Shown: positions 2,789 to 36,440 of the stretch, in pieces
Layout of the letters: every line of letters begins with the position of its first letter
Position numbering within the stretch: position 1 is the first letter of the stretch
Assembly (NCBI GenBank): GCA_021801825.1
Contig: JAJYXK010000007.1
Location: 24,509-88,508 of the forward strand
Length of the DNA: 64,000 nucleotides
Origin: a bacterium
GTDB lineage: Bacteria; Patescibacteriota; Minisyncoccia; UBA6257; JAGOQP01
Direction of reading: 5' to 3'
The notes under the pieces: model-generated
Told to the model about the DNA's origin: nothing
Database searches by the model: none
The model's input: only the letters and a program-made list of their open reading frames with translations
Position numbers and translations under genes: made by a program

Positions 2789-6168
<3,380 letters not shown>

Positions 6169-6301: not shown

Positions 6302-6447
6302 AAGAAGCATTTCATTTGCTGGTGATCTAGTGTTGCGTGCCCCACCTCTTCCCATTCCGAACAGAGAAGTGAAAGCGTAATACTCCGATGATACTCGTTC
6401 GCGGGGAAAGTAGGATTTGCCAGCATATGAAATGCTTCTTTTTTATT
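6302..6447 (+). other. 14-bp inverted repeat (aagaagcatttcat ... atgaaatgcttctt) enclosing the whole 5S gene, followed by T-run: processing stem / operon terminator
   Basis: Perfect complementarity 6302..6315 with 6428..6441, then tttttt. Confidence 0.55.
6318..6424 (+). rRNA. rrf: 5S ribosomal RNA
   Basis: gctggtgat...cccattccgaacagagaagtgaaag...gccagc; terminal helix pairing. Confidence 0.9.
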
Positions 6448-28471: not shown

Positions 28472-28498
28472 CATATCTAACTTAAACAAAAAGGTTTG

Positions 28499-28572
28499 CA
28501 CCGGCGGAGGGAGTCGAACCCCCAACTTGCGGTTTTGGAGACCGTTGCTCTAGCCAATTGAGCTACGCCGGC
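28499..28572 (-). tRNA. tRNA-Trp (anticodon CCA), discriminator G73, CCA not encoded
   Basis: GCCGGCG acceptor, D-arm GCTC-AATTGGCTA-GAGC, anticodon loop CTCCAAA, T-arm GGGGG-TTCGACT-CCCTC. Confidence 0.85.
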
Positions 28573-28590
28573 AGAAACCTTATTTATAAA

Positions 28591-29937
28591 CTAATTACTC
28601 AAAGTGCTAATGAAGTCGTCTATATCCTTTTTAGTAACATGTGGCATGATCGTAAATCGATATACTAGGATAGTACGTTTTATGATCATAGTCTTTTCAT
28701 CGCGCTCTGTCAAGTCTTTAGGAAAATGATCCTGTACAATACAAAATTGTTCTCGTATTTCTGAAAACCGCTTTTTTAAATTCCGCGAAAGTCTAACGGT
28801 TAAGATGTTTGTGCGGCCCTTGTAGATTTGTATTCCGGGAATAGTTTTCAGGGCGTCCTCTAAGTATTGGCGATGCTTCATGCATCTCTGTATTATTTCA
28901 TTGAATCCTTCATACCCGTGCTGTTGAAGTGTTGCCCAACATGCTGCAGCGATTGCTCCAGACCGAGATCCAGGAATAGTATAGTCGGTGTGTCCATAGA
29001 TATATCGCGCGGTTGTTTTAGTAAATTCAAGGAATCCTTTGCGGCATAAGAATATACCAGCAGAATAAGGAACCCACCCTGTCTTATGGGCATCAATAGA
29101 TACAGATCCTACTAAGGGATGCTGGAATGCAAATTTACAATCCGGTTCTATAAATGGAATTACAAATCCGCCAAAAGCGGCATCTACATGAACATATGCG
29201 GCCATGTATAATTCAGATCTTAGACGCTCTAGGGTCTTACAGATTTCATACACGGGATCAATACTGCCCATATTAGTTGTTCCGGCTGTAAGAAAAACAG
29301 CAAATCGCCGGTAACCTTTTTTGTGGTGTGCGCGGATTTCTTCTTCTACAACGCGCGGTTCTAATTCGCCGTTATTATCCGTGGGGAGTTCCAGGAGCAT
29401 GTTGCTGTGTTTGCAGCTTTCATTAGGGTTCTTTCCCAAAAGACGATGAAAGGCCTTCTCAATGCTGTAGTGAAATAGAAATGATCGAAGGACTACAATT
29501 CCTTGGTTTTCACCTTCGGTAACGGTTATATCTTTCCACAGCTTATTTCGAGCGAGCCACAATCCGTGGTCATTTCCATCGGTTCCACCGGTACATAAAT
29601 ATCCATCTATTTTTTTAGAAGGATTTTTAACGCCGATCATTTGCGCTACGCCATATATGAATTCTCTCTCAAGTTTTTGGGTACCCGCAAAACCCATCTC
29701 AGATGGTTTTTCATCTGCTGATTTGGTATGGTAGCCGATATTATTTGGTTGTCTCTTAGAGAACATGTTGTGAACTTGTAGCGCGAGTTTATTTGGTGTT
29801 GTCCCGGGGAATCCAAGAATTGGTTGGGATTCATAATTAATACATTGAGCAAGGGAGTCGATGAGTGTTTTGTTTATTTCTTGTATGTTGTTTCCTTTGT
29901 GAGGAAACCAGTCGGGGTCCTCTGTTTTCTTCTTCAT
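28591..29937 (-). CDS. Group II PLP-dependent decarboxylase (MfnA/aromatic-amino-acid decarboxylase-like)
   Basis: HVDAAFGGFVIPF and S-x-D-x-HK (SVSIDAHKTGWVPYSAG) PLP-lysine motif; 448 aa. Confidence 0.65.
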   Translation of the reverse strand: MKKKTEDPDWFPHKGNNIQEINKTLIDSLAQCINYESQPILGFPGTTPNKLALQVHNMFSKRQPNNIGYHTKSADEKPSEMGFAGTQKLEREFIYGVAQMIGVKNPSKKIDGYLCTGGTDGNDHGLWLARNKLWKDITVTEGENQGIVVLRSFLFHYSIEKAFHRLLGKNPNESCKHSNMLLELPTDNNGELEPRVVEEEIRAHHKKGYRRFAVFLTAGTTNMGSIDPVYEICKTLERLRSELYMAAYVHVDAAFGGFVIPFIEPDCKFAFQHPLVGSVSIDAHKTGWVPYSAGIFLCRKGFLEFTKTTARYIYGHTDYTIPGSRSGAIAAACWATLQQHGYEGFNEIIQRCMKHRQYLEDALKTIPGIQIYKGRTNILTVRLSRNLKKRFSEIREQFCIVQDHFPKDLTERDEKTMIIKRTILVYRFTIMPHVTKKDIDDFISTLSN

Positions 29938-29938
29938 A

Positions 29939-30961
29939 TCATCCTCCGTTGAAGAATTTATTTTTAATGCCTATTTTATCGCGTATTTCCGCGATGGTTT
30001 CATTAAATATCGGTGTTACATAAGCTTTTCCTGCCTCAAGAACGTCTCTTATAAGGCTGGGTTTTTCCAATAGCTGTATGCGTTGCTCTCTAAATTCTTC
30101 CAGAAGATTGTTTACATTAACCGAAAGTAATTTTTTGCAATCAATACAACCAATCGCAGCTTTTTCGCAACCGTTCTTGCTCCAATTAGTTTCGTCTGGA
30201 GCACTAATTAATTTGTGAAGTTGGAAAATAGAACAATGTTCCGGGTTTCCCTGGTCCGTCTTTCTTATGCGGTTCGGATCCGTGGGGGCGATTTTAATTT
30301 TACGCCATGTTTCTTCTGGATTTTCTAAGAGGACAATGGTGTTTCCGTCGCTCTTTCCCATTTTTGGAAATCCGTTTTCGTTCATGGCCGACAACCCGGG
30401 GACAGTTATCATTTCGTTTAGAAGGGCGTCCGGAATAGGAAAATTCGTTTTGTAAAGATGATTAAGTCTCCTTGTAAGCGAAATAGTTAACTCAAGATGC
30501 GCCTGCTGGTCTTTTCCAACAGGGACGAGGTTCGCCTGGGGACCGATAATATCTGCTGCCATAAGTACTGGATAATTAAATAGTCCAGCATTTACATCTT
30601 CGGGATGTTTAGCAACCTTATCCTTATAGGTGGGGAGCCCCTCTAAATCTTTTACCGGAGTTATACAGGATAGATACCAGGCAAGTTCAGTAACCTGTGG
30701 TACGTCAGATTGAAGATAGATAAAAGAATTTTCCAAACTAATCCCGGACGCAAGATAATCAATAACAATGTTAGGCATGTGTTGCTCAATCATCTGCGCC
30801 TCTTTCAGTGTGGTAAGGGTGTGTAAATCTGCCACAAAGAATAAACATTTGTAGCTACTATTTTTTGACATTTCTGCAAAACGGGTGAGTACGCCGAGAT
30901 AATTTCCAAGATGTAACTTTCCTGTTGCTCTAATGCCTGACAAAACAACCTTTTTTTGCAT
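29939..30961 (-). CDS. trpS: Tryptophanyl-tRNA synthetase with C-x21-C-x6-C-x2-C putative Fe-S motif
   Basis: SGIRATGKLHLGNYLG (HIGH), KMGKS (KMSKS), Cys cluster HCSIFQ...NGCEKAAIGCIDCKK. Confidence 0.85.
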   Translation of the reverse strand: MQKKVVLSGIRATGKLHLGNYLGVLTRFAEMSKNSSYKCLFFVADLHTLTTLKEAQMIEQHMPNIVIDYLASGISLENSFIYLQSDVPQVTELAWYLSCITPVKDLEGLPTYKDKVAKHPEDVNAGLFNYPVLMAADIIGPQANLVPVGKDQQAHLELTISLTRRLNHLYKTNFPIPDALLNEMITVPGLSAMNENGFPKMGKSDGNTIVLLENPEETWRKIKIAPTDPNRIRKTDQGNPEHCSIFQLHKLISAPDETNWSKNGCEKAAIGCIDCKKLLSVNVNNLLEEFREQRIQLLEKPSLIRDVLEAGKAYVTPIFNETIAEIRDKIGIKNKFFNGG

Positions 30962-31081
30962 ACTACATCTCCTTTTAGCATTTGCTAAAGTTAGTTTTTT
31001 TGAATGACTTTATTATCAAATTTCTGATTTTATAATAAAACATTATATAAAAAGAGTCAATTTCATACTATAACAAAGTAT

Positions 31082-31111
31082 TTGACAAAAACACACCGAA
31101 GTGTTTACAAT
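31082..31111 (+). promoter_or_regulatory. Sigma70-type promoter TTGACA-N17/18-TACAAT
   Basis: tttgacaaaaacacaccgaagtgtttacaat. Confidence 0.5.
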
Positions 31112-31222
31112 AAAAGTATATATGTCTCACGCAGCTATTATAAGAAATGCAAGTTGGGCATGGTGGGTAATAAAACCTTTGTTCACATAGGTCTGCATTT
31201 TTCGCTTTTACAGTTTTTAACT

Positions 31223-31258
31223 AATAGACCTCTGTGATAAAGGTCTATTGTTTTATTG
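31223..31258 (+). terminator. Intrinsic terminator inside the 250-nt leader upstream of 31364 (aatagacct-N9-aggtctatt + gttttattg): attenuator/riboswitch-like
   Basis: Perfect 9-bp stem + T-run, located between promoter and RBS gaggagacagt-ATG. Confidence 0.45.
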
Positions 31259-31363
31259 TGGGCTGGTAATTAAATATATTTGTGTTTAGTTATCAGCACA
31301 TAATTAAGGTGTCTGAATAGTGCACTTTTAAAATTTTTTTAAACATATCCATGAGGAGACAGT

Positions 31364-32110
31364 ATGAAAATAACGATAGGCATAGAACGAGAGTGGTTTA
31401 TCTTAAAAGATAATAAGATAGCCCCTTTTATTGGAAAACTTCTTCCCGAGCTTGAAATAGAATGCACTCGAAGAAATCTTCCAAAAGAATTATTCTCATT
31501 TGAGCTGTTTGCGGGACAGGTTGAAGATAGAACACGAGTTGCCTCCAGTGTTCAAGAGGCCCTTTGTTTTCTTCATAGTAACGAAGAAATACTTATGGCG
31601 GTTGGGAGAAGGCTTGGATTACAGTTCCTGTGTACCGAGTATGTCTCTGAGGAGGATCTGGGAGAGCTTGTGGTAAATCCTTTTAATCCTCGCCATAAAG
31701 AAATTTGGCAAGGATTACAAAAGATTGAGAAAGTCTCCGCTTCTCAAGTTGCGGCTATCCATATTCATATTAGCGCCACCCTGGAAGAGGCGATGTGTGT
31801 CTTAAACTTTTGTCGAAAACCGATTATAGATGATCTATGTAAACTAGGGGATTTTTCTTCCGGAAAACGCATGGAGTCATATAGAACTATGGCAAAAGTT
31901 TATGGAGATCCGCCTGAATTTGAAAACTCAAACGACCTACTCTCTTATATTAAAAACAAGGGGGGGGAAAAAAATGTTTGGGATCTCGTGAGATATAAAC
32001 CATCGACCGGAACCGTTGAATTCAGAATGTTTGGCGCTACAAATAACGATAGTTTTATTGCGCTATTCATCTTAGCTTGCGAAGAGGTATTCGCAAGAGC
32101 CTGTGTGTAA
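31364..32110 (+). CDS. Truncated GCS2/YbdK-family carboxylate-amine ligase (248 aa)
   Basis: N-terminal IGIEREWFIL (cf. GxExE motif), central AAIHIHISA (HxH), C-terminal GTVEFRMFGAT (cf. TVEVRV), all typical of the YbdK family from memory. Confidence 0.55.
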   Translation: MKITIGIEREWFILKDNKIAPFIGKLLPELEIECTRRNLPKELFSFELFAGQVEDRTRVASSVQEALCFLHSNEEILMAVGRRLGLQFLCTEYVSEEDLGELVVNPFNPRHKEIWQGLQKIEKVSASQVAAIHIHISATLEEAMCVLNFCRKPIIDDLCKLGDFSSGKRMESYRTMAKVYGDPPEFENSNDLLSYIKNKGGEKNVWDLVRYKPSTGTVEFRMFGATNNDSFIALFILACEEVFARACV

Positions 32111-32164
32111 CACGCAGGCTTTTTTTATTTATTATATAGAGAATACGTTTTTATTTCTTGTCTG

Positions 32165-32992
32165 TTGTTCTATACTACTAATATTATGTATCGCGACAAA
32201 CCACTTATAAAAGAATATGGGAAAGGTAGTCCTCGGGTCGTTGTTGTTGGATCCCTTCATGGGGATGAACCAGTGGGCGCTCGTATCATTAAAGCGATAG
32301 AAAAACATCCTCTGTATAAAGGGACATTGATTACTATTGTAGGGAATCCTGTTGCGCTACAGAAGGGAGTTAGGTATATTGCTCAAGATTTGAACAGGTG
32401 TTTTCCTGGGAAAAAGACGGGTTCTCACGAAGAGAAATTAGCACATCAGATTGAGAAAATAATTCGTCATGCTGATTATTGTATTGATATTCATTCAACC
32501 TCTACCAACACTCGTCGGGCGGCTATTATAAAGAAAAAGAATGTTTTTGTTAAGAAATTACTTTCACTGTGTGTGCCTGAGCATATAGTAATTATGCCTA
32601 AAGGAGTTGGAGATGGATCTTTGATTAATTTCTGTAAAGCTGGTGTCAGCTTAGAATATGGTAAACACCAGAGCCGGCAGACGTATACGGAATCATTAAG
32701 AGACACACTCTTGGTATTGGAAAATTTAGGGATGATACAAAAGACTCGCCTCACAAAGAAACCATGGAAAATCAGCAAATATTATTCGGTATATGGGACT
32801 GAACCAAAACCGGAAAGTTTTATTATGAGAAAATCCATCTTAAACTTTGAGCTAATCAAAAAGGGGGACGTTCTGGGAAAAGTGAGTGAAAAAGAGATAT
32901 TTGCAAAAGAATCTTTCTATCCAGTCCTTTTTGGAGGAAGATCTTACAAAGAAATAATGGGTTTTAAAGCAAAACGATTGGAAAGTTTATAA
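32165..32992 (+). CDS. Succinylglutamate desuccinylase/aspartoacylase (AstE/AspA, M14-like zinc hydrolase) family protein
   Basis: GSLHGDEPVG, DLNRCFPG, DIHST motifs. Confidence 0.6.
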   Translation: MFYTTNIMYRDKPLIKEYGKGSPRVVVVGSLHGDEPVGARIIKAIEKHPLYKGTLITIVGNPVALQKGVRYIAQDLNRCFPGKKTGSHEEKLAHQIEKIIRHADYCIDIHSTSTNTRRAAIIKKKNVFVKKLLSLCVPEHIVIMPKGVGDGSLINFCKAGVSLEYGKHQSRQTYTESLRDTLLVLENLGMIQKTRLTKKPWKISKYYSVYGTEPKPESFIMRKSILNFELIKKGDVLGKVSEKEIFAKESFYPVLFGGRSYKEIMGFKAKRLESL

Positions 32993-33048: not shown

Positions 33049-33717
33049 TCAGAGAACAAGTCTTCTAACAGCTTGTAATGTTGAGAGTTGGTCCTGGGGG
33101 AGTACGTTCCCAATTACGTTATTCAGGATTGTTATAATTCCAACGGGCTGGTGTCTTAATGGATCTATCACAAAAAGAGCCCCTTTTGGAAATTGATATT
33201 TTTTTATCGAAAATAGCGTAGGCGGGAAAGCTTCCCTTAACATCGTTATAAAACCAGATTGAGTATACCAGTGTGACAGAAAGAAGCCCTGTTGTTTTTC
33301 TAATCTACCGATAACTTGCAAACACGCAACATCTGTTTCGTTTCTATCGGATATGGAGCGATGGAAGCTTCTTAAGAATTTCTTAATATTGTGTTTGTTT
33401 TTCTGTTGATCTGATGATCTGACAAGCGAGCGAATGCCACATGAGGTGAATATTCCACCGGGGCTGTACCGCATCCAGTCCATTAGGAGTTCATTTCCAA
33501 GAATCTCATGATTCTTCAAATATTCATCAAATCCACAAGAGGGATATTTGGATGAGGGCTGTGCTCTGAAGAAACTCCTAGATTCATATATACCAATTAA
33601 TAGACGTCGTGGTATATCATTGCTTATTTCTTTACATACTAACCCAATGTTTCCAGGTAGGTATTTAATATCAGCACCAGCATCGGCATAGTTTTTAATG
33701 TTTTTTCTCGTGCCCAT
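33049..33717 (-). CDS. Hypothetical protein; possible C-terminal part of a frameshifted SAM-dependent methyltransferase
   Basis: Overlaps 33639..34001 by 79 nt in a different frame on the same strand. Confidence 0.35.
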   Translation of the reverse strand: MGTRKNIKNYADAGADIKYLPGNIGLVCKEISNDIPRRLLIGIYESRSFFRAQPSSKYPSCGFDEYLKNHEILGNELLMDWMRYSPGGIFTSCGIRSLVRSSDQQKNKHNIKKFLRSFHRSISDRNETDVACLQVIGRLEKQQGFFLSHWYTQSGFITMLREAFPPTLFSIKKYQFPKGALFVIDPLRHQPVGIITILNNVIGNVLPQDQLSTLQAVRRLVL

Positions 33718-34001
33718 GCCACTTGTTGGCTTGAAAGATCATTGAATAATACACGAGGGAGCGGTTTTTTATTTCTGGAGATAATATCATCCAGAATAAT
33801 TTTTGGATCTCTGCATCCAACGGCACCGCCGAGAGTTATAAGCTCTTTAAAGGAAATTTCTCTACATCTTTTAAGGACACACATGAGTTCTCCTTGATTA
33901 TCAACGGTCATATCTGCCTTTTCATACAGAGAAGCCTGTCTATCCCAGAATGTTTTTTGTCCTTGAATATCTAATTTTGGCTTTCGCCAATATTTTTCCA
34001 T
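33639..34001 (-). CDS. Methyltransferase-like N-terminal fragment (motif I ELITLGGAVGC, post-I VLFNDLS)
   Basis: Class I SAM-MTase motif order; ORF ends prematurely at 120 aa. Confidence 0.4.
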   Translation of the reverse strand: MEKYWRKPKLDIQGQKTFWDRQASLYEKADMTVDNQGELMCVLKRCREISFKELITLGGAVGCRDPKIILDDIISRNKKPLPRVLFNDLSSQQVAWAREKTLKTMPMLVLILNTYLETLG

Positions 34002-34015
34002 AAAATCCTCCGGTC

Positions 34016-34495
34016 TTAGTTATGGGGTTGTTCTGTTATCTGCACAACAAATGCTTTAGTGAGCGTGATGACATCTTTTGGTTTCAGTGAGAATGTCTTG
34101 CTATTATCACCGGCGCCACAATACAAAATGTCTTGTTTGAGAAATGAATCATCAATATAAGTTGGAATTTCAGCCCCGAATGGGGGAATTGCTCCAATAG
34201 TAAAGCCAGCCTCCTCCACAGATTCTTTTGAGGCAAGTTGTATATCTTTCCGCGTAACCGAGAGAACTTCTGCTAATTTCTTTAGATTAAGATGGGCCAT
34301 ACCAGGAATCACTACTCTACACAATCCTTTTCCTGAAATAACCATGAGTAGGGTTTTTGCCATTTCATTTTCTGGGATGTCTAACTCACGTACGACATCC
34401 TCCATAGTAAAAACTGGTGCGTGATCCATTATTTCAAAAGCAATAGCATTATCTATCAATATAGCGCGAAGTTGTTCAAATGAGATTTTTGTCAT
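34016..34495 (-). CDS. YbaK/ProX-family aminoacyl-tRNA trans-editing deacylase
   Basis: KTLLMVISGKG, GAIPPFG, CGAGDNSKTF match YbaK family pattern (KTLL, GGxSPLG, SGGKRG) recalled from memory. Confidence 0.7.
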   Translation of the reverse strand: MTKISFEQLRAILIDNAIAFEIMDHAPVFTMEDVVRELDIPENEMAKTLLMVISGKGLCRVVIPGMAHLNLKKLAEVLSVTRKDIQLASKESVEEAGFTIGAIPPFGAEIPTYIDDSFLKQDILYCGAGDNSKTFSLKPKDVITLTKAFVVQITEQPHN

Positions 34496-36245: not shown

Positions 36246-36332
36246 GGAGAGGTGTCAGAGTGGTCTATTGTGCAGCTTTGCTAAAGCTGTGGGGCTTAAC
36301 CGCCCCCGGGAGTTCGAATCTCCCCCTCTCCG
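36246..36332 (+). tRNA. tRNA-Ser (anticodon GCU), long variable arm, G73
   Basis: GGAGAGG acceptor, anticodon arm CAGCT-TTGCTAA-AGCTG, variable arm GGGGC-TTAACC-GCCCC, T-arm GGGAG-TTCGAAT-CTCCC. Confidence 0.85.
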
Positions 36333-36440
36333 CAGTAAGAACTTTTTATCGGATGACCTGAATGCCCGCATATTTCCTTACTTTTTGAAAATCAAAATTT
36401 ATTAAAAAGCAGGCAGGAGGAAGGGATTCGAAATATAATT

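Follow-up and report, generated by a model that had tools for sequence, protein, structure and literature searches.

Tryptophan codons in the leader of a short GCS2-type ligase gene point to trpL-type attenuation in a CPR bacterium

Introduction

The trpL leader and the other amino-acid attenuators of Proteobacteria and Actinobacteria combine a promoter-proximal mini-open reading frame (mini-ORF), clustered codons (for tryptophan in trpL), a terminator about 60 nucleotides (nt) further on and an antiterminator that is mutually exclusive with this terminator and is set by the position of the ribosome. Here, we describe a leader with all of these elements in a genome of the Candidate Phyla Radiation (CPR, Patescibacteriota). 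It lies in a stretch of 64,000 nt (contig JAJYXK010000007.1 of assembly GCA_021801825.1, positions 24,509 to 88,508, forward strand; 'the window' below) and precedes the genes for a short carboxylate-amine ligase and an AstE/AspA-family hydrolase. To our knowledge, CPR bacteria are ultra-small and mostly uncultured symbionts that are thought to lack amino-acid biosynthesis. We read the leader as a ribosome-mediated transcription attenuator of the trpL type that reports the supply of charged tRNA-Trp and places the ligase-hydrolase pair in a tryptophan-starvation regulon, with a probability of about 0.72.

A preliminary description of this DNA, made from the sequence alone, had listed a promoter, a hairpin, a Shine-Dalgarno sequence, a ligase and a hydrolase, all of which were found at the positions that it gave, and had read the leader as an attenuator or riboswitch. 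The attenuator reading is supported. The sensor and its tryptophan context had been overlooked: the mini-ORF, a divergent trpS, a tRNA-Trp gene and T-boxes for tryptophan in orthologous leaders. For comparison, 72 loci were sampled from genome and metagenome collections. These represent 52 distinct ligase groups, and leader types were counted in the 46 distinct groups whose sequence extends 290 nt or more upstream of the ligase.

The main variant among the CPR leaders also shares with trpL a 1:2 hairpin directly after the UGG run, and its antiterminator differs in pairing with the loop and the 3' arm of the terminator. The window variant lacks a clear 1:2 hairpin and has the stop codon of its mini-ORF within the antiterminator strand. 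In contrast to trpL, the CPR leader would control a ligase in tryptophan auxotrophs instead of tryptophan-biosynthesis genes, its mini-ORF has no Shine-Dalgarno sequence and is probably leaderless, and the terminator is followed by a further structured module (P4/P5). T-boxes (Rfam RF00230) resemble the CPR leaders in their position before orthologous ligases, in the signal (uncharged tRNA-Trp) and in ending on a terminator/antiterminator, but the window leader has no T-box elements.

The closest described relatives of the ligase are YbdK and other GCS2 proteins (PF04107; PDB entries 1R8G and 1TT4), glutamate-cysteine ligases and glutamine synthetases, with which it has in common a GCS2 match, the fold and motifs resembling their metal and ATP sites. 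It differs from YbdK in its length (about 245 amino acids against about 370), in a sequence identity of only 12-15% and in its probable regulation by tryptophan. Ligases resembling glutamine synthetase that are paired with a γ-glutamyl amidase are known as PuuA/PuuD for putrescine and as γ-glutamylanilide synthetase/hydrolase in aniline degradation. The CPR locus likewise pairs a putatively ATP-dependent ligase of the glutamine synthetase fold with a hydrolase that could take the added group off again, and in eight CPR groups this hydrolase is a PuuD-like GATase1/C26 protein. Unlike PuuA, the CPR ligase is a much smaller GCS2-type enzyme, its partner is mostly of the AstE/AspA family, no oxidase or dehydrogenase genes stand in between and the pair is probably regulated by the supply of Trp-tRNA. 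The hydrolase, finally, resembles the AstE/AspA family (succinylglutamate desuccinylase, aspartoacylase and DoeB) in its match to the family hidden Markov model (HMM) and in its HxxE and His zinc-site motifs, and differs in having only 268 amino acids, in scoring under the equivalog cutoffs and in its tryptophan-related context. In the literature that was searched, neither the ligase family nor, for CPR bacteria, a Trp T-box or leader-peptide attenuation was found to be described.

A leader mini-ORF with three tryptophan codons

The leader and the ligase gene contain the following features, all on the + strand.

31082-31111, +: σ70-type promoter, TTGACA (31082-31087), 18-nt spacer, TACAAT (31106-31111), 11 of 12 consensus positions
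31122-31190, +: leader mini-ORF MSHAAIIRNASWAWWVIKPLFT, 22 codons and TAG, Trp codons at 31155-31157, 31161-31163 and 31164-31166
31184-31194, +: 5' strand of the antiterminator, CACATAGGTCT (segment CACAUAGGUCU), with the stop codon of the mini-ORF (31188-31190) inside it and 31226-31236 as its pairing partner
31223-31258, +: intrinsic-terminator-like attenuator, 9-bp stem 31223-31231/31241-31249 with a 9-nt loop, then GTTTTATTG
31353-31358, +: Shine-Dalgarno sequence GAGGAG of the ligase gene
31364-32110, +: carboxylate-amine ligase of 248 amino acids, short-form GCS2/glutamine synthetase fold, CPR-specific family (Pfam, AlphaFold2, Foldseek)

The promoter, previously described as consensus, is the top-scoring site of the region and deviates from the consensus at a single position. 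In the relative L005, whose ligase is 71% identical to that of the window and whose gene order is the same, the TTGACA and a TAC.AT box are kept, and the relatives with a mini-ORF (type A below) have TTGAC. and TAT.AT at the equivalent position. The ATG of the mini-ORF lies 10 nt past the -10 box and the mRNA is therefore probably leaderless or nearly so. At the other end of the leader, the GAGGAG noted earlier as the ribosome-binding site is present just ahead of the ligase ATG at 31364.

The first segment of the leader, which had been taken for a plain stretch of about 105 nt, thus holds a conserved ORF of 22 codons in which codons 12, 14 and 15 are UGG. The mini-ORF of L005 (METAYTEKRINWLWWGFYPFFA, with the C-terminal part ..NWLWWGFYPFFA) has exactly the same length. 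Seven of its 22 residues (32%) are common to both peptides, among them Trp12, Trp14 and Trp15. L083, with a ligase that is 61% identical, has a mini-ORF of the same length that reads ..TWLWWKCSFFR and is followed by a terminator.

More widely, a mini-ORF of 18-33 codons with a run of two or three Trp codons is found 220-250 nt before the ligase, together with a terminator, in 24 of the 46 groups. The commonest form among the relatives is MK.N..II.LNWWWALQTYSQSPSFALA, and NWWW occurs in other lineages. All 24 type-A groups, although they follow two leader designs of very different sequence, retain the ATG, the in-frame run of two or three UGG codons and a stop codon; the position of the stop varies between 3 and 16 codons past the Trp run. 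Scanning the window for further mini-ORFs with Trp runs gave only chance-looking matches.

Terminator and antiterminator

The two arms of the terminator hairpin, AATAGACCT (31223-31231) and AGGTCTATT (31241-31249), are perfectly complementary. The hairpin has a folding energy of -10.5 kcal/mol (z = -3.96) and is equalled by one of 200 shuffles, which bears out the 9-bp hairpin and T-run of the preliminary description. A scan for consensus terminators missed it for the sole reason that its loop is longer than 8 nt. In L005 and L083 a hairpin with a T-run is found at the same place with a different sequence, and in 22 other leaders, those of the main type, five of the nine terminator pairs show compensatory changes; the structure of the leader hairpin is thus conserved.

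The partner of the antiterminator strand, 31226-31236, consists of the 5' arm and the loop of the terminator. The antiterminator helix is part of the minimum free-energy fold of the free window leader. When a ribosome is placed on the stop codon, the antiterminator is masked and the terminator folds. When the footprint of the ribosome is placed on the last Trp codon of the nascent RNA, the antiterminator forms in the window, L005 and L083, with energies of -13.6 (z = -2.7), -20.9 and -19.3 kcal/mol, respectively. The helices in the two relatives are equivalent to that of the window and are built from different sequence, and in all three leaders the stop codon of the mini-ORF lies within the antiterminator strand.

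The 22 main-type leaders provide a second view of the switch. Four helices make up their termination state, namely the terminator, P5, an outer helix and a 1:2 hairpin that starts from the last UGG. Taken together, the four are 88.8% paired, with changes on both sides in 19 of 37 pairs, values that none of 500 shuffles reach; controls with slid partners are 34-46% paired. In an alternative fold, segment 2 pairs with the terminator loop and the beginning of the 3' arm, and we take this helix to be the antiterminator. It is 82.9% paired, against 30-43% in slid controls, with compensatory changes in six of its 12 pairs, and between five and 19 of 500 shuffles do as well. Computed folds and covariation together indicate an antiterminator that is mutually exclusive with the terminator and that depends on the position of the ribosome.

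Predicted T-boxes in place of the mini-ORF

Rfam 15 was searched on the leader, on the window and on 14 + 8 further loci. For the window leader no family was found even at E <= 10, the only hits being chance-level miRNA and sRNA matches with E >= 0.67, in line with the earlier remark that it matches no known riboswitch class. There is no T-box match in 30900-31500 at E <= 10 and none in the entire window at E <= 0.01.

In 17 of the 46 groups the ligase is preceded by a predicted T-box with a UGG (Trp) specifier in the place of the mini-ORF, and these groups have no mini-ORF. RF00230 gives eight matches to the orthologous loci, at a permissive threshold only, with E values between 1.5e-13 and 0.011; the scores of 30-72 bits are all under the gathering score of 93. 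A GA motif, the T-box sequence GGUGG(U/C)ACC and a terminator are nevertheless present in these loci. UGG and a following purine form the specifier, which reads GAA-UGG-A or U-UGG-G and stands directly beside the stem. In L022 and L025 the UGGC of the T-box matches the G73 discriminator of the adjoining tRNA-Trp gene. Many of the CPR T-boxes also differ from RF00230 in having a stem I of about 26 nt. This apparently ultrashort hairpin, containing the UGG and the purine, was seen in L009, L014, L025, L038, L040 and L077, some 250-330 nt upstream of the ligase; in L010, L016, L022, L034, L084 and L085 stem I has the conventional length of about 90-100 nt.

The T-box of L009 and that of L025 are located between trpS and the ligase and Rfam detects no second T-box at either locus; L057 and L071 have the same layout. 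The ligase, and not trpS, is therefore the regulated gene. Since mini-ORF and T-box leaders alternate before one gene family, two unrelated devices that report uncharged tRNA-Trp precede it.

The ligase

The ligase matches Pfam GCS2 (PF04107) with an E value of 1.1e-7 and 32 bits against a cutoff of 21, over profile positions 2-139 of 291 only. The GCS2 assignment of the preliminary description thus passes the HMM search, and the proposed kinship with YbdK is reflected in the predicted fold. The AlphaFold2 model is a single confident domain with a predicted local distance difference test score (pLDDT) of 96.8. Its best Foldseek matches in the PDB are the YbdK structures 1tt4 and 1r8g (E = 1.7e-8, query TM-score TMq 0.67, 12-15% identity), followed by glutamate-cysteine ligase (2gwc), GshF and glutamine synthetase. 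Only the fold search was informative here; a sequence search of the PDB with the ligase profile gave no meaningful match.

The protein had been described as truncated. The 120 homologues listed are all between 234 and 302 amino acids in length, mostly about 245, and the model is that of a complete domain, and the truncation is accordingly rejected. Members of the family are rare: among 1.84 billion representative sequences, the profile found 232 matches with E <= 0.001 and 14 with E <= 1e-30. As far as the sources are named it is restricted to CPR bacteria, with metagenome-assembled genomes from Paceibacterota and from Komeili-, Uhr-, Nealson-, Staskawicz-, Kerfeld- and Torokbacteria. More distant relatives of about 255 amino acids come from contigs that are too short for gene context.

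The motifs ERE, ELFAGQ.ED, H.H and EFRMFG (with the E.R of VEFRMFG) are invariant and supply acidic, His and Arg residues. The sequence fits an active ATP-dependent amide ligase because these ERE, ELFAGQ.E, H.H and E.R columns do not vary. The top database labels are YbdK and glutamate-cysteine ligase, and the scores against the NCBIfam equivalogs (39.9 against a cutoff of 409, 32.6 against 371 and 31.2 against 176 bits) are all far under the cutoffs. We assign the function at the level of the class only: the bond that is formed is probably an amide of the γ-glutamyl type.

The hydrolase partner

Two further features on the + strand complete the pair.

32095-32133, +: terminator-like hairpin between ligase and hydrolase, 13 bp, overlapping the ligase stop codon and followed by a T-run (hairpin 32095-32123, -18.7 kcal/mol, z = -5.8)
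32186-32992, +: AstE/AspA-family zinc amidohydrolase, 268 amino acids if translated from the ATG at 32186 (a TTG at 32165 opens the longest ORF)

The hydrolase matches AstE_AspA_cat (PF24827) with an E value of 1.7e-20 and 73.8 bits against a cutoff of 25, in agreement with its earlier assignment, and its translation contains HGDE and DIHS motifs. It scores below all three of the aspartoacylase, AstE and DoeB equivalogs (69 against 180, 38.8 against 305 and 26.8 against 402).

The ligase and an AstE-type gene occur together in 29 of the 52 distinct loci. Directly after the ligase, eight further groups have a GATase1/peptidase C26 gene and two have GGACT/AIG2. The partner is on the same strand, mostly after a gap of about 15-200 nt; at three loci the called ORFs touch the ligase gene or overlap with it. 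One group has a peptidase S51 gene about 650 nt downstream of the ligase, and another single group has a class II (Ntn) GATase gene beside it on the opposite strand. The partner families are all amide hydrolases, mostly of the γ-glutamyl type. The suggestion that the two genes make and break the same conjugate is strengthened, because C26/GATase1 or GGACT stands in where AstE is absent, but it is not proven.

In most of the 44 relatives examined, the stop codon of the ligase gene is succeeded by a GC-rich hairpin with a U-run, irrespective of the hydrolase family downstream, and this hairpin has the look of a conserved terminator or attenuator internal to the pair. The two genes, which had been called an operon, are indeed a conserved pair, but the term needs qualifying because a strong and conserved terminator-like hairpin separates them. 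The ligase and the hydrolase are probably not produced in a 1:1 ratio.

The P4/P5 module

Between the terminator and the Shine-Dalgarno sequence lies a structured module (31259-31345 in the window).

31262-31297, +: P4, long hairpin 31262-31276/31283-31297 (-17.7 kcal/mol, z = -6.5)
31293-31333, +: P5, hairpin TCAGCAC (31293-31299) with GTGTCTGA (31309-31316; position in the window assigned by eye), followed by the motif GCACTTTTAAAA (31322-31333)

The same module is found at the equivalent position in loci L008-L068 and also after the T-box of L022. In an RNAalifold alignment of 21 leaders P4 has 20 pairs, 13 of them with compensatory changes. P4 is mutually exclusive in the relatives with the outer helix that flanks the terminator and with P5, the latter having four of eight pairs compensatory and 89% of the cells paired. 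All leader types, including those with a T-box, have the motif G.(T/A)CTTT.AAAA some 20 nt ahead of the Shine-Dalgarno sequence. As a pattern it is not enriched in the window (two matches to G.NCTTT.AAAA against 1.1 expected). P4/P5 may be a second-stage attenuator or an element that acts on the ribosome-binding site.

Neighbouring genes

Three genes are arranged head-to-tail on the - strand, divergent from the ligase, over 28498-30961 and with gaps of 1 and 18 nt.

29939-30961, -: trpS, tryptophan-tRNA ligase, divergent from the ligase gene (TIGR00233, 265 bits against 176.75)
28591-29937, -: group II pyridoxal phosphate (PLP)-dependent amino-acid decarboxylase, 1 nt downstream of trpS
28498-28572, -: tRNA-Trp, anticodon CCA, directly downstream of the decarboxylase

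They look like one operon. The families nearest to the decarboxylase are MfnA, histidine decarboxylase and serine decarboxylase, all under the equivalog cutoffs, and the arrangement suggests a tryptophan decarboxylase that is co-expressed with tryptophanyl-tRNA synthetase (TrpRS) and tRNA-Trp. A PLP decarboxylase is found near the ligase in six lineages, in one of which (L085) a major facilitator superfamily (MFS) transporter gene is next.

trpS is within 5 kb of the ligase in nine of the 52 groups and tRNA-Trp(CCA) within 5 kb in eight. Genes of the Trp_repressor family (Pfam E = 5.6e-19) are near it in four (L014, L040, L051/L053 and L067), where they encode YerC/YecD-like proteins of about 104 amino acids and lie within about 2.4 kb. 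If a genome has about 700 genes, chance would, by a rough estimate, place each gene named near the ligase in less than one group. L009, L038, L057 and L071 have, on the opposite strand just past the AstE-like gene, a fusion of about 400 amino acids between a type II chorismate mutase and an S-adenosylmethionine (SAM) methyltransferase, which is another link to aromatic amino acids.

Some neighbours are less constant. Of the nearby genes pointed out previously the PLP decarboxylase recurs, but only three lineages have the methyltransferase-like and YbaK genes beside the pair. The YbaK-type deacylase of the window is at 34016-34495. At 33049-34001 (- strand) two overlapping ORFs of 222 and 120 amino acids correspond to one protein of 317 amino acids in L005, and the gene appears to be split by a frameshift, as a pseudogene or through an assembly error. 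Its product, previously called a methyltransferase, has no match in Pfam or NCBIfam.

Elsewhere in the window a 23S rRNA gene of 3368 nt occupies 2797-6164 and a 5S rRNA gene 6318-6425. Inside the former, at 5611-5868, there is a weak match to a group I intron (E = 2.2e-5, under the gathering score); the rRNA genes of CPR bacteria commonly contain insertions. The element at 36246-36333 is called tRNA-Ser(GCT) by ARAGORN and has a weak Rfam match to tRNA-Sec (38 bits, under the gathering score); it is most likely a long-arm tRNA-Ser.

Proposed mechanism

Transcription would start a few nucleotides before the mini-ORF. With plentiful tryptophan, the ribosome would reach the UAG and cover CACAUAGGUCU, the 9-bp hairpin and U-run would form and most transcripts would end at about 31258. 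When Trp-tRNA is scarce, the ribosome would stall on the UGG codons, about 17 nt upstream, and leave the stop-codon segment free for pairing with the terminator's 5' arm and loop; with the terminator blocked, RNA polymerase would read through. It would then cross P4/P5 and enter the ligase gene. The ligase would most likely form an amide at the expense of ATP and the AstE/AspA hydrolase would most likely cleave the same kind of bond, with the internal hairpin probably setting the ratio of the two.

As to what is conjugated, our best guess is tryptophan or an indolic amine, as a γ-glutamyl or N-acyl conjugate, for salvage, trapping or detoxification. More speculatively, tryptophan might be trapped or salvaged as an acidic N-acyl conjugate, it might be shielded from the decarboxylase, or an indolic amine that inhibits TrpRS, such as tryptamine, might be conjugated.

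Alternative explanations

The promoter, the ORF and the terminator would also make up a complete transcription unit, and many type-A peptides appear to be conserved beyond their tryptophans (NWWWALQTYSQSPSFALA). The mini-ORF and its hairpin might then be an independent small gene for a hydrophobic peptide of 22 amino acids (the precursor of a ribosomally synthesized and post-translationally modified peptide, RiPP, a substrate of the ligase or a membrane protein), with the ligase expressed from a separate promoter in the next 105 nt; Iyer et al. are said to have proposed amidoligase-type enzymes as peptide modifiers in 2009. We consider this quite improbable. A Trp T-box replaces the mini-ORF before the same ligase in 17 lineages, and the peptides of the window and L005 are only 32% identical, with the tryptophans and a few other residues kept, against 71% for the ligases. 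The position of the stop wanders by many codons, the seemingly conserved residues overlie RNA helices in which compensatory changes alter the amino acids, and the promoter search gave no good site in the stretch from the terminator to the ligase. The RiPP-precursor reading is rejected on the grounds of the T-box replacement and of the covariation, which explains the conservation of the peptide. A metabolite- or protein-binding switch, i.e. a new riboswitch or a target of a TRAP- or TrpR-like protein in which the mini-ORF is incidental, would account for a whole leader that folds better than shuffles (z = -3.9), for a P4/P5 and G.TCTTT.AAAA module that has no assigned role and is also found after a T-box, and for the Trp_repressor-family genes near four groups. 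This too is improbable: the ATG, UGG run and stop are kept in 24 type-A groups of two designs, Rfam has no match, a reading of the sequence turned up no repeated protein-binding triplets, and a stop codon inside the antiterminator strand (window, L005 and L083) is only sensible if ribosomes read it.

The most sceptical reading is that the hairpin is a mere leaky terminator or stabilizer and that the enzymes are housekeeping proteins, for example a weak YbdK-like γ-glutamylcysteine ligase, that stand beside trpS by chance. The weakness of the window hairpin and the YbdK and glutamate-cysteine ligase labels fit this, but two unrelated Trp-sensing leaders and trpS, tRNA-Trp and TrpR-like neighbours recur in distant lineages, and the ligase (39.9 bits where 409 are needed in NCBIfam) belongs to a rare family that is CPR-restricted by its named sources. 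We regard it as very improbable.

Several observations weigh against the trpL-type attenuator. The window terminator is weak: its stem has three G-C pairs, its loop spans 9 nt and its U-run is interrupted. In equilibrium folding with the ribosome on the Trp codons the terminator is still favoured once its 3' arm is present, and the window switch would for this reason have to be kinetic (co-transcriptional), as in classical attenuators. The mini-ORF has no Shine-Dalgarno sequence and its translation would require a leaderless mRNA or a very short 5' end. Five of the 46 groups have neither mini-ORF nor T-box, and neither does L078; these exceptions are L017, L019, L047, L066, L069 and L078, of which L019 retains only a T-box-like terminator. 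The P4/P5 module is left unexplained by the attenuator model. Not every ligase gene has an AstE neighbour, and in view of the internal terminator the hydrolase may be expressed independently of the ligase. Finally, the induction under tryptophan starvation of an enzyme that would consume an amine or amino acid is not obviously logical.

L078 itself, with a ligase 62% identical to that of the window, has the gene order of the window (trpS, decarboxylase, ligase, AstE). The gap between its trpS and ligase is just 158 nt (3843-4000) and holds no mini-ORF, terminator or T-box; this lineage has either lost the sensor or never acquired one.

The regulatory conclusion, that the leader is a Trp-codon attenuator which is replaced elsewhere by a Trp T-box and that the ligase belongs to a tryptophan-starvation regulon, is well supported. 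A wider proposal, which we offer only tentatively and think rather doubtful as a whole, is an ATP-driven system by which CPR bacteria, unable to make tryptophan, acquire or protect it. In it, a minimal ligase of the glutamine synthetase fold, induced by uncharged tRNA-Trp through a T-box or a WWW leader peptide, would conjugate tryptophan, or an indolic amine that inhibits TrpRS such as tryptamine, to glutamate or another acidic acyl donor, and an interchangeable amidase (AstE, C26, GGACT, S51 or Ntn) would release it. Such trapping, salvage or detoxification would keep tRNA-Trp charged. The leader would then be the first ribosome-mediated attenuator to be described in CPR bacteria and act as a two-stage relay, the terminator first and P4/P5 second.

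Implications

The regulatory principle is classical; the enzyme pair is the substantive new functional lead. One rare ligase gene has repeatedly come under two unrelated sensors of tRNA-Trp charging, a T-box and a Trp-codon leader peptide, and the T-box before the ligase, and not before the neighbouring trpS, is strong comparative evidence that the ligase is a principal response to tryptophan limitation in these organisms. An uncharacterized 'hypothetical protein' thereby becomes a directly testable target. The natural replacements of attenuator by T-box form a set in which swaps of RNA regulators during evolution can be studied. If the attenuator reading is true, classical ribosome-mediated attenuation exists in CPR bacteria, apparently on leaderless mini-ORFs, and the locus points to a tryptophan-related pathway in these organisms that was not previously known.

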